A stretch of DNA of 64,000 nucleotides. Source: Escherichia coli (lineage in GTDB: Bacteria > Pseudomonadota > Gammaproteobacteria > Enterobacterales > Enterobacteriaceae). Under the pieces are notes generated by a model. The model worked only from the letters and a program-made list of their open reading frames with translations, did not search any database and had not been told where the DNA came from. The position numbers and the translations under genes were made by a program. The first letter of the stretch is position 1. The number at the start of each line of letters is the position of its first letter. Location: NCBI RefSeq assembly GCF_024700885.2, contig NZ_CP117016.1, one strand, 5' to 3'. Positions 1 to 59,994 of the stretch are shown here, one piece after another.

Positions 1-222
1 GTACTTTCGGTAGAAGCAACAAATTGGAATCTTGGGAATAAGGATGGTTATCAGCAACGCGCAAAAACAGCAGCATTCCCTGCGGGAAATAGCTGGCATG
101 ACGTAAGACTGGATAATCAACAACATATTGATAAGGCACTTCCAGGAAGAATAGAACGTCGCTGCCGTGATGTTATGCGGATAATGCTACCGCTGGTGAA
201 GGAGCTGGCGAAGGCGTCTTGA
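1..222 (+). CDS. iap: 3' end (last 73 codons) of an M28-family aminopeptidase gene, probably iap; 5' part lies upstream of the window
   Basis: Frame 1 is open from position 1 to TGA at 220-222, giving ...VLSVEATNWNLGNKDGYQQRAKTAAFPAGNSWHDVRLDNQQHIDKALPGRIERRCRDVMRIMLPLVKELAKAS*. The WHD..D motif resembles the C-terminus of M28 peptidases such as Iap. Identity is by recall, not search. Confidence 0.55.
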   Translation, partial: VLSVEATNWNLGNKDGYQQRAKTAAFPAGNSWHDVRLDNQQHIDKALPGRIERRCRDVMRIMLPLVKELAKAS

Positions 223-323
223 TGGGTTTGAAATGATTACTCCCTTGCCTGCAGGAAATCAATGCCACCAGAAACAGAGTATAAAAAAGGGGTGCAGGAG
301 GCCAAACTTTAACAATTCAATAC

Positions 324-342
324 GCGGGGTTTTACCCCCGCG
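324..342 (-). terminator. GC-rich hairpin (CGCGGGG-loop-CCCCGCG) 6 nt downstream of hokX stop; putative hok mRNA terminator
   Basis: Perfect 7-bp GC stem read directly; on the minus strand it is followed by the U-containing tract GUAUUGAAUUGUU. Confidence 0.5.
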
Positions 343-348
343 TGGTGG

Positions 349-501
349 CTACTTCTTCGATTCGTAAGCGAGAACTGCCTTAAACTCCATACCACGTTCT
401 CTGATACTCAACTCACACAACGAGTCGCCTACCATCAGCGTGAATCCCAGTACTGTACAACACAGTACGATGATTGCCACAAGGGCATATTTTGTCAGCA
501 T
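349..501 (-). CDS. hokX: Hok/Gef-family type I toxin (50 aa), hokX-like
   Basis: Minus-strand ORF not in the ORF track (under 60 aa): [50 protein letters not shown]. Hydrophobic N-terminal helix plus the C..E..R.G..E.A...YES signature of Hok proteins; GGAGG 7 nt upstream of ATG; stop TAG at 349-351. Confidence 0.75.
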
Positions 502-765
502 GTCTTGCCTCCCTGCAAAGAAGAGACTAACATTCGAATTGCTTAGGTTCGAACGCTGGCCTCAGGTTGATAGAAATATCGCCTGGGGCTTTTGTCCATC
601 TGGAACCTCGCGAATGCTTAACGCCAGACAGCCTCAAGCACCCAACTCCATTCTATACCTGTTAATTCTCCCTGCGATGTTCACCTTTAAATGCCGGAAT
701 GCTGCTCGCAAAATAAAAACGCCCCCATCATTTCTGACAGAGGCGTTTAATTTATCCGGCAATAT

Positions 766-1500
766 TTACCCTTCGTGTAACCCACATTCCCTTTTTAAGC
801 CAAAGAAACGCGTTTCTTCTTCCGCCATGCCGGGTTCCCATTTACGGGTTGTATGGGTATCGCCCACCGATAAATATCCTTCGTCCCATAATGGGTGATA
901 TTTCAGGCCATGTTTTTGCAGGTACTGATAAATAGTTCGGTTATCCCAGTCGATAATCGGCAGCACTTTAAATACGCCACGCTGAATTGCCAGCACCGGT
1001 AAATTGGCGCGGCTGCCGGATTGTTCACGGCGCAGGCCAGCAAACCAGGTTTGCGCGTTAAGTTCTTTCAGCGCCCGGTTCATCGGTTCGACTTTGTTGA
1101 TGTCATTGTACTTTTCAATGCCTTCAACGCCCTGCTCCCACAGTTTGCCGTAGCGCGCTTCCTGCCAGGCGGCGCTTTCGGTAGCGCGGTACACTTTCAG
1201 GTTGAGCTTGAGTTTGTCCGTTAACTCGTCAATAAAGCGGTAGGTTTCCGGGAACAGATAACCCGTATCGGTCAGGATCACCGGGATATCCGGGTGAATC
1301 TGATTCACCAGATGCAGGCTCACCGCCGCCTGAATGCCGAAACTGGAAGAAAGTACATATTCACCGGGCAGATTATCCAGCGCCCAGGCAACGCGGCCTT
1401 CAGCATCCAGTTTTTCCAGTTCGGCGTTAGTTTCTGCCAGCGCCAGAATGCGATCTACCTTCGGCAGTTCGTTCAGGGCGTTTAGATCGAGTTTGGACAT
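766..1500 (-). CDS. cysH: phosphoadenosine phosphosulfate (PAPS) reductase
   Basis: ORF 766..1653 trimmed to internal ATG at 1500 (244 aa, [25 protein letters not shown]...); recognisable CysH sequence; first gene of the cysJIH arrangement read 3' to 5'. Confidence 0.95.
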
Positions 1501-16591: not shown

Positions 16592-16605
16592 TGAACATAC
16601 CTGAA

Positions 16606-16877
16606 TGGTTATCCCCGCTGACGCGGGGAACTCGCCAGTGCCTGGTCATATGTGTAACACCTATCCGGTTTATCCCCGCTCGCGCGGGGAACTCTTGCTG
16701 TATAGAGATTATCGGCGTGGGATTGTCGGTTTATCCCCGCTCGCGCGGGGAACTCGTTTGCGGCTTGCAAACATTTTAATGCGTATTCGGTTTATCCCCG
16801 CTCGCGCGGGGAACTCCCAGCCCGACACAAATAATGCAGCATTGCGCGCGGTTTATCCCCGCTCGCGCGGGGAACTC
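16606..16877 (-). CRISPR. orphan type I-E-like CRISPR array: 5 repeats (29 bp; leader-distal one degenerate, 28 bp) and 4 spacers of 32 bp
   Basis: Repeats at 16606-16633 (degenerate TGGTTATCCCCGCTGACGCGGGGAACTC), 16666-16694, 16727-16755, 16788-16816, 16849-16877, consensus CGGTTTATCCCCGCTCGCGCGGGGAACTC. Spacers: GCCAGTGCCTGGTCATATGTGTAACACCTATC; TTGCTGTATAGAGATTATCGGCGTGGGATTGT; GTTTGCGGCTTGCAAACATTTTAATGCGTATT; CCAGCCCGACACAAATAATGCAGCATTGCGCG. No cas genes in the window. Confidence 0.9.
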
Positions 16878-17040
16878 TCTAAACATAACCTATTATTAAT
16901 TAATGATTTTTTAAGCCAGTCACAATCTACCAACTTTACAGTATCACACAAACAACACATCTATTATGTTAAAGAGCACTTAATCCATTGATTGAAAAGG
17001 TAAATATTTAAAATAACTCTATACAAACTAAAATCTACCA
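16878..17040 (-). other. AT-rich CRISPR leader adjacent to the intact terminal repeat
   Basis: AT-rich sequence abutting the non-degenerate end of the array; extent approximate. Confidence 0.5.
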
Positions 17041-17216
17041 AACTCCGACGTAATAATTTTCACCTCAGAGAAAAATTAACGCCACAGAATTTGTAGAGAA
17101 TGACAATGATTAGTCCGGAATGGGCAAAATGGATGAGTTTTCAGAGGCGACAAAAAATATAAATGAGTGGAAGTCTTTACAGGTTCCACCCATTTATAAC
17201 GCATATAAATGTGTAA

Positions 17217-17888: not shown

Positions 17889-18181
17889 AGCATTCTCTGT
17901 GAAGTGGATAATTGTTAATTATTGCAGATCCTGCCACAACAATCATGTCTTATTAACATTCTGTTACAGGCAGGTTTAAAGAAAAATGAGAAACAGATCG
18001 TTAATAATAAAAGGGAGTAACGTATTATGTCAGAAATAAATAAAGTAAAGGGATTTAATCATGTCAAAAACATTCACCAAAATTATACTTATTTTTTCTG
18101 TGTTCGTTTTTAATTATAACGAATCTCAAATTACCGATGCCGCCGTCAATTTATTTATCCAGCTTTAATGGGACATTTATA

Positions 18182-19113: not shown

Positions 19114-20427
<1,314 letters not shown>

Positions 20428-36624: not shown

Positions 36625-36993
36625 AATAAAAAAAGGGAGCACTGTATTCACAGTGCTCCCGGTTCGTTTCGCAGCATTCCAGCTACTTTTGTTGCTCCCT
36701 GCTCATCCTTGACAACTTTTCCTCTGGCCTTGCGGCCAATCGTTCATCCTGAACTATTGCTTCCTGCTCACACCACCCCGATGTGATACTTCATCCTGAA
36801 GTGTCCCTGGCCTTCCTGACCCACCGAATCATCCTGACCGGTTCTCATTCTCCATCCTGGAGGTGTCCTTTAACGCGTCCTGCGTCATCCTCTTCGCTTC
36901 ATCCAGAAGCCTTTCCCTGAAACACCATCCTGGTGTGTCCTTCAGAAGTGTCATCATCCTGATGTTCACTTCGTTGTCTGACTCCCTGTCGAC
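36625..36993 (-). ncRNA. csrB: CsrB small RNA (CsrA-sequestering)
   Basis: Minus-strand transcript of about 369 nt from GUCGACAGGGAGUCAGACAACGAAGUGAACAUC (5' end at 36993) to hairpin GGGAGCACUGUGAAUACAGUGCUCCC plus U-run (36627-36660). At least 8 exact CATCCT (AGGAUG in the RNA) plus many more CAGGA/AGGA motifs on the plus strand. Confidence 0.95.
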
Positions 36994-55163: not shown

Positions 55164-55369
55164 ACTTCCTGAGCCGGAACGAAAAGTTTGATCGGAATGC
55201 GTGTTCTGGTGAACTTTTGGCTTACGGTTGTGATGTTGTGTTGTTGTGTTTGCAATTGGTCTGCGATTCAGACCATGGTAGCAAAGCTACCTTTTTTCAC
55301 TTCCTGTACATTTACCCTGTCTGTCCATAGTGATTAATGTAGCACCGCCTAATTGCGGTGCTTTTTTTT
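55164..55369 (+). ncRNA. gcvB: GcvB small RNA
   Basis: ACTTCCTGAGCCGGAACGAAAAGTTT... with GU-rich TGTGATGTTGTGTTGTTGTGTTTGCAATTGG region, ending in terminator AGCACCGCCTAATTGCGGTGCTTTTTTTT; divergent from gcvA. Confidence 0.93.
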
Positions 55370-59678: not shown

Positions 59679-59691
59679 GCGCATCCACGGA

Positions 59692-59768
<77 letters not shown>

Positions 59769-59801
59769 ATTAAAATTTGATGAAGTAAAGCAGTACGGTG
59801 A

Positions 59802-59878
<77 letters not shown>

Positions 59879-59910
59879 ATCAAATTTGATGAAATAAAGC
59901 AGTACGGTGA

Positions 59911-59987
<77 letters not shown>

Positions 59988-59994
59988 ATTATTG

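Follow-up and report, generated by a model that had tools for sequence, protein, structure and literature searches.

The iap–cysH region of Escherichia coli has been sorted into arrangements A to I by Almendros, Mojica, Díez-Villaseñor, Guzmán and García-Martínez (2014, mBio; PMC3903273). According to that article, only strains with cas-E2 lack hok/sok, and further variants of the region are ascribed to IS186 and another IS. Arrangement B, as described there, lies between the iap and cysH flanks, has no CRISPR2.1 array, leader or cas-E genes, retains hok/sok together with the block IG3 and contains no IS. The same article mentions CRISPR2.3 leaders in strains without cas-E. In 2025, a survey covering 237 urinary-tract isolates of E. 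coli found the iap–cysH region (its Region B) to be empty of CRISPR-Cas in 54% and to contain hok and sokX in 90%, and none of the nine groups defined by that survey is cas-E-less with an array in the ygcE–queE region (PMC12736100).

Here we provide a description of the iap–cysH junction and of a nearby CRISPR array in one E. coli strain, based on a 64-kb stretch of its DNA that we refer to as the window (64,000 nucleotides, positions counted from its first letter). A sequence-only reading of the window had proposed a cas-deleted lineage that carries an orphan array. Our analysis supports this proposal, as the junction runs from iap through hok to cysH without a CRISPR-Cas remnant and a type I-E array with its leader is located 16 kb away. 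The cas-less junction is already known, having been described in 2014 as arrangement B, and we consider it very likely that it represents this known cas-less allele of the CRISPR-I locus, derived from one old loss event. The features of the first 1,500 positions are as follows.

1..222, plus strand: 3' end of iap, residues 273-345, with the stop codon at 220-222 (translation, PRK10199, RefSeq annotation of the identical DNA of strain 1190)
223..233, no strand assigned: 11 bp past the iap stop, still common to cas+ genomes (homology with K-12 and with the O157-type locus ends at 233)
234..281, no strand assigned: junction-specific filler of 48 bp, TGATTACTCCCTTGCCTGCAGGAAATCAATGCCACCAGAAACAGAGTA (absent from the K-12 and cas-E1 loci examined)
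282..348, minus strand: hok mRNA 3' untranslated region, IG3 of Almendros 2014 (homology to the hok–cas3 promoter interval of cas-E1 genomes)
inside 282..348, minus strand: GC hairpin at 320-343, predicted Shine-Dalgarno-pairing element at about 295-305 and U-run at 284-289
349..501, minus strand: hok toxin ORF, 50 aa, intact (ORF list, RefSeq WP_000956458.1, Pfam PF01848)
486..643, minus strand: hok mRNA leader and sok antisense region (Rfam RF01794)
541-599, plus strand: equivalent of K-12 sokX (alignment to the K-12 stretch that includes annotated sokX)
717..748, minus strand: terminator-like hairpin downstream of cysH (consensus scan only)
766..1500, minus strand: cysH, phosphoadenosine phosphosulfate reductase (NCBIfam TIGR02057, E 1.1e-103; RefSeq)

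Frame 1 of positions 1-222 contains 73 codons followed by the stop at 220-222 and its translation ends in MLPLVKELAKAS. The fragment matches the NCBIfam equivalog PRK10199 with an E value of 3.7e-39 over positions 273-345 of a 346-position profile, which bears out the earlier identification of an M28-peptidase-like C-terminus as that of iap, the gene for the alkaline phosphatase isozyme conversion aminopeptidase. In strain 1190, a close relative introduced below, the DNA upstream of the window holds a full iap gene preceded by cysD-cysN-cysC ... rpoS, which rules out that 1-222 is a cas gene fragment or that cas genes lie just upstream. The hok and cysH genes are located where the sequence-only reading had placed them, as judged from the ORF list, RefSeq and profile matches, with the stop codons of iap and hok separated by exactly 126 bp and with cysI and cysJ coming after cysH. 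The distance from the iap stop to the cysH stop is 543 bp in the window versus 9,959 bp in K-12.

The absence of CRISPR-Cas at this junction, and of cas genes from the whole window, rests on several searches. When up to 3 mismatches were allowed, the I-E repeat was found across the whole window in only four copies, all at 16666-16875 (0 expected), so that none occurs in the interval 223-348 that had been read as devoid of repeats. The best candidate for a degenerate repeat in this interval is an 11-nt similarity (TTTACCCCCGC) within the hairpin at 320-343, itself shared by cas+ genomes; the similarity is reached by 62 of 2000 shuffles, and we reject it. Comparison of 16 Cas proteins (K-12 cas-E2 and O157-type cas-E1) with all six frames of the 64-kb window by tblastn gave a best E value of 0.017. 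The genome of strain 1190 is 99.994% identical to the window over 64 kb (3 mismatches and 1 gap), and its RefSeq annotation lists no cas gene over the whole window span; the order given there is iap, hok, cysHIJ, queD, ygcN to ygcE, CRISPR, queE, eno, pyrG, mazEFG, relA, barA, gud, fuc ... recD. The earlier statement that the window has no cas-like ORF is confirmed by these two results. Thus, the window does not contain the cas3, Cascade (cse1, cse2, cas7, cas5, cas6e) and cas1-cas2 genes of a complete type I-E system. The first two of the four differences between the window and strain 1190 are a substitution at 19375 and a loss of register at about 22332. The window thus stems from a very close relative of strain 1190 rather than from that very assembly.

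When compared with arrangement B as described in PMC3903273, the window exhibits no structural difference. The junction is positioned between iap and cysH in the cysDNC-iap / cysHIJ context and there are no CRISPR2.1 repeats, no CRISPR2.1 leader and no cas-E genes or fragments of them. Additionally, hok/sok and IG3 are retained and IG4 and IG5 are absent (block names assigned from the text of that article), while positions 1-800 contain no IS ORF or IS homology, a property that sets B apart from arrangements C, D-G and I.

The hok/sok module at the junction is complete in the window, comprising both the toxin ORF and a Sok antisense region that overlaps the mRNA leader. The hok product is annotated in RefSeq as 'Hok/Gef family protein' (WP_000956458.1), the same protein occurs in cas+ and cas-less genomes, and in public genomes the exact protein is found adjoining either cas3 or iap. 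Public records assign Pfam PF01848 HOK_GEF to the identical protein; NCBIfam Hok models match the 50-aa ORF with E values of 2.6e-14 and 3.6e-10, scores that fall under their curated cut-offs. The sok family RF01794 is matched at 486-643 with 111.7 bits versus a gathering score of 59 in Rfam. A minimum free energy fold of the RNA from 643 to 283, computed from a single sequence with transcript ends assumed by homology to other hok mRNAs, has a z score of -3.45, and in this single-sequence prediction the 3' element GGCCUCCUGCA pairs with the Shine-Dalgarno region of hok.

To define what is missing we used two reference loci, that of K-12 (L001) and the cas-E1 locus of the O157-type strain 9000 (L003). 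Positions 1-233 of the window are homologous to the iap side of both loci and positions 282-800 are collinear with the hok–cysH side of the cas-E1 locus. The breakpoints at 233/234, which is 11 bp beyond the iap stop, and at 281/282 correspond to L003 positions 2938 and 12002, such that L003 2939-12001 (9,063 bp) is absent from the window and 48 bp (234-281) stands in its place. The missing segment comprises the degenerate terminal repeat, the CRISPR array, its leader, the cas genes from cas2 through cas3 and the AT-rich promoter region of cas3. Strain 9000 represents arrangement A (cas-E1, O157:H7-type), which shares with the window the iap 3' end plus 11 bp, hok/sok with an identical Hok protein, the hok 3' untranslated region and cysH. 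It differs from the window in having the 9,063 bp, with array, leader, cas2-cas1-cas6e-cas5e-cas7e-casB-casA-cas3 and cas3 promoter region, where the window has the filler. K-12 MG1655 (cas-E2) has the same flanking genes, but with a cas-E2 operon and an array of 12 repeats between them; of the hok locus it keeps only sokX and the leader, the ORF and the 3' untranslated region being absent. Its homology to the hok side consequently starts only at window position 499, with 95.4% identity over 499-800. As the cas-E2 module replaces the hok ORF, K-12 is not the direct precursor of the junction, and the choice of K-12 as comparator in the sequence-only reading has to be corrected in favor of the cas-E1 (O157-type) arrangement. 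More generally, K-12 is a poor reference for the iap–cysH interval, given that most E. coli have hok there and K-12 does not.

The junction is not a clean deletion: nothing in cas+ loci corresponds to the 48 bp at 234-281, and a simple deletion does not account for them. There is no microhomology or IS remnant at the junction. The filler occurs neither in K-12 nor in 12 other loci that we compared, cas-E1 and cas-E2 operons included. A 52-nt probe over the filler, run against 5426 complete RefSeq E. coli genomes, matched 1127, each at a single site and none of them cas+; in 1119 of these 1127 the match is at least 99% identical, and the filler is found nowhere else in any of the 5426 genomes. 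Searches of the plasmid and phage collections likewise gave no match, and neither IS421 nor the insertion sequence in E2348/69 matches the filler. An exact-match scan for an invariant 18-mer of the filler, a scan that would miss diverged copies, found it absent from every Escherichia species-representative genome and from relatives; its 43 matches among species representatives are all chance matches in unrelated taxa, none of them Escherichia. One candidate source was a segment of iap about 150 bp upstream, which matches the filler at 14 of 15 positions in a B2 strain (equaled in 5 of 300 shuffles) and at only 13 of 15 in the window (61 of 300); we do not find this convincing. The text of PMC3903273 does not mention the 48-bp filler. 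A rare second filler allele (L011:6001-6052) differs by substitutions at 5 of 48 positions (about 10%), with flanks that are nearly unchanged. It is carried by GDSC2227PM, XJ34, XJ6-3, 14EC033 and CUWW06, with intermediate haplotypes in three more genomes, and could be an import from a divergent Escherichia lineage.

The cas-less allele is neither specific to this lineage nor new. An identical junction is present in 1127 of the 5426 complete genomes (roughly one in five), and a 251-bp junction probe is covered in one piece in 1123 of the 5426. Among the carriers are Nissle 1917, which has the same junction, and E2348/69, which has the same junction with an IS added between hok and cysH; the lineage of the window additionally keeps a four-spacer CRISPR-II array. 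The window lineage, Nissle 1917 and E2348/69 have identical fillers despite differences at several flanking sites only a few tens of bases away, one being the iap stop codon, which reads TGA in the window lineage and TAA in the other two. An identical filler between differing flanks argues for a single event, and we thus regard the change as having probably happened once. Haplotypes of arrangement B differ by about 4% over 500-800 bp, which indicates that the allele is old. The genomes nearest to the window are labelled O166:H15, O7:H15 'ST70' and PCN033, all of which probably belong to phylogroup D.

This distribution also bears on whether the junction could have arisen by a recent, lineage-specific deletion mediated by an IS, or be an artifact of assembly collapse. 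Insertion sequences are common at the locus. The IS186/IS421 target at 327-338 lies in the hairpin just downstream of hok, where the relatives VTB96933v and GPEC856 have an IS421 inserted with a 12-bp duplication of 327-338, and the cas+ genome FDAARGOS_401 carries IS421 at the window-equivalent position 327, between hok and cas3. The recurrence of insertions at 327-338 agrees with an IS186 hot spot described in PMC3903273, which reports IS186 and another IS at the locus and proposes them as drivers of cas-E loss in other arrangements. However, the junction itself contains neither an IS nor the end of one, and the filler is unlike IS421 and unlike the IS of E2348/69. Furthermore, 1127 complete genomes that were assembled independently and have diverged flanks share this junction. 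The identity of the filler amid these flanks, together with the genome count, effectively refutes a recent IS deletion or an assembly collapse, and we regard either as extremely improbable.

The direction of the change, from cas+ to cas-less, is suggested by the array that remains between ygcE and queE, together with published comparisons with other species. Its features are as follows.

16605..16877, minus strand: probable orphan type I-E array (CRISPR-II / CRISPR2.3) with four perfect repeats, one degenerate terminal repeat and four spacers of 32 nt (pattern search, reading)
16878..17110, minus strand: AT-rich leader of the orphan array (alignment to the K-12 CRISPR-II leader)

An I-E-type array 16 kb from the junction had been noted in the sequence-only reading and was indeed found at 16605-16877, with five repeats of which the last is degenerate. 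Strain 1190 has a CRISPR annotated by RefSeq at the same place between ygcE and queE; Tandem Repeats Finder did not report the array. The array has the 29-nt type 2 repeats, the 32-nt spacers and the AT-rich leader of a complete type I-E system, and its leader plus first repeat are aligned to those of the active CRISPR-II locus of K-12 with 97% mean column identity over 262 columns (a 233-nt leader and a 29-nt repeat). It is 100% identical in 30 complete genomes derived from dogs, chickens, humans, water and a marsupial on different continents, and it is shortened in one more. Three genomes that share the array and fall outside the top junction matches are cas-less too, with only IS421 added (two of them were inspected directly). 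There is thus no spacer turnover among close relatives, and this invariance across 30 genomes fits an array that no longer gains spacers. The orphan arrays of E. coli, namely CRISPR2.3 without cas-E and CRISPR4 without cas-F, are similar in this respect: the leader is conserved, the spacers are invariant and no cognate cas genes are seen, here in the window and at the canonical sites of strain 1190.

An explanation in which the array is not orphan would have the cas genes moved, such that another chromosomal site or a plasmid carries a functional I-E or I-F operon. Room for this is left by the coverage, which consists of 64 kb of the source genome and two canonical sites inspected in a proxy genome. 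However, in E. coli the I-E system is described only at iap-cysH and the I-F system only at clpA-infA, and both sites are empty in strain 1190; its I-F site (infA–clpA) contains no cas genes and only tRNA-Ser and a one-spacer I-F mini-array. The implied lack of any cas operon therefore holds for the window and for both canonical sites of the proxy strain. The invariance of the array among genomes from different hosts and continents is also unlike active acquisition, and we judge relocation of the cas genes to be highly unlikely. Consequently, this strain is most likely without CRISPR immunity, with its I-E locus empty and the I-F site empty in the nearly identical strain 1190. The I-F mini-array of strain 1190 (L006:4960-5047, between tRNA-Ser and clpA) has one perfect and one degenerate repeat that enclose one 32-nt spacer, GCCAACCGAAAGAAAAACTCGATTTTTATACC.

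A different history is that of an ancestral empty site, in which iap-48 bp-hok is the original order, the CRISPR2.1 array, leader and cas-E genes were inserted in other lineages with displacement of the 48 bp, and the lineage of the window never had cas genes at this locus. The restriction of the 48 bp to cas-less genomes, with no source in cas+ loci, counts in favor of such a history. Two points in PMC3903273 also favor it: arrangement B is noted to predominate among the basal MLST groups, and I-E is argued to have arrived later than I-F. The four-spacer I-E array with its conserved leader 16 kb away is difficult to reconcile with it, as an I-E array is built only by the type I-E Cas1-Cas2. 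The presence of the array is thus internal evidence that cas genes were once available to the lineage, and it is the main argument from within the window for reading the empty iap–cysH locus as a loss. Equivalent I-E systems are present at the same locus in E. fergusonii, E. albertii and Salmonella according to PMC3903273, and the filler 18-mer is absent from the Escherichia species representatives and relatives in the exact-match scan, which misses diverged copies. On balance an ancestral empty site appears quite unlikely, and we infer that the change was a loss rather than a failure to gain.

In the loss that we favor, one old event would have taken out the CRISPR2.1 array with its degenerate repeat, the leader, the cas-E1-type genes from cas2 to cas3 and the cas3 promoter region. 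In their place 48 bp would have been left, bounded on one side by the 11 bp that follow the iap stop and on the other by the 3' end of the hok transcript, and the resulting allele would then have been inherited and have diverged in several lineages, including that of the window. Without Cas1-Cas2, Cascade and Cas3 the CRISPR-II array would neither gain spacers nor direct interference, and would persist as a frozen relic with its leader intact.

The right breakpoint appears to be located just past the predicted 3' end of the hok transcript, adjoining its U-run, and this location suggests that hok may have constrained where the loss ended. A related idea is that the filler is the footprint of an unrecognised event in which the whole CRISPR-Cas cassette was excised or exchanged as one module, or else is the original unoccupied site, with the right end possibly set by a need to preserve the 3' fold-back element of the hok mRNA. 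We consider this unlikely; module exchange, like the ancestral empty site, is rated low because of the orphan array and the occurrence of I-E at the locus in related species. Were the right end fixed in this way, the extent to which a neighboring defense island was lost would be dictated by a type I toxin-antitoxin locus. The filler and a breakpoint at the end of the hok transcript are small clues to the way in which E. coli loses or exchanges whole CRISPR-Cas cassettes. The cas-less junction is real but ordinary and matters little beyond correct annotation. The ygcE–queE array, best treated as a frozen relic, has no use other than as a clonal marker.

The spacers of the array were also compared with possible targets. 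An anti-cas role has been proposed for orphan I-F arrays, the spacers of which reportedly target cas-F genes. The four I-E spacers have no match to I-E cas operons or to the window itself, and thus there is no sign of a comparable anti-cas role. Spacers S1 to S3 have no match in the phage or plasmid collections, and the only spacer match in the plasmid collection is to a mislabelled chromosome. Spacer S4 (16634-16665) has the sole candidate protospacer, which lies in the tail protein gene of Escherichia phage phiSTEC1575-Stx2k (OQ243220.1:43619-43652). This match comprises 31 of 34 aligned bases, where the 34 consist of the 32-nt spacer and 2 adjoining bases of the concatenated query. Spacer S3 (16695-16726) is 100% identical to the leader-proximal, and therefore newest, CRISPR2.1 spacer of the unrelated cas-E2 strain 2017.02.03CC (L067:20031-20062). 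Either the two lineages took up one and the same protospacer independently, or the arrays have recombined.

Several additional features of the window are located outside of the junction and the array. A small ORF at about 18027-18168, between queE and ygcG, corresponds to yqcG in K-12; the annotation of strain 1190 treats it as a pseudogene with a frameshift. Three tandem tRNA genes with a 109-bp period are located at 59690-59991 (Tandem Repeats Finder score 583; three Rfam tRNA matches) and are annotated as tRNA-Met in strain 1190. The window also contains full-length genes for the small RNAs CsrB (36625-36984, 382.9 bits) and GcvB (55164-55369, 198.4 bits), both of which are ordinary core content.
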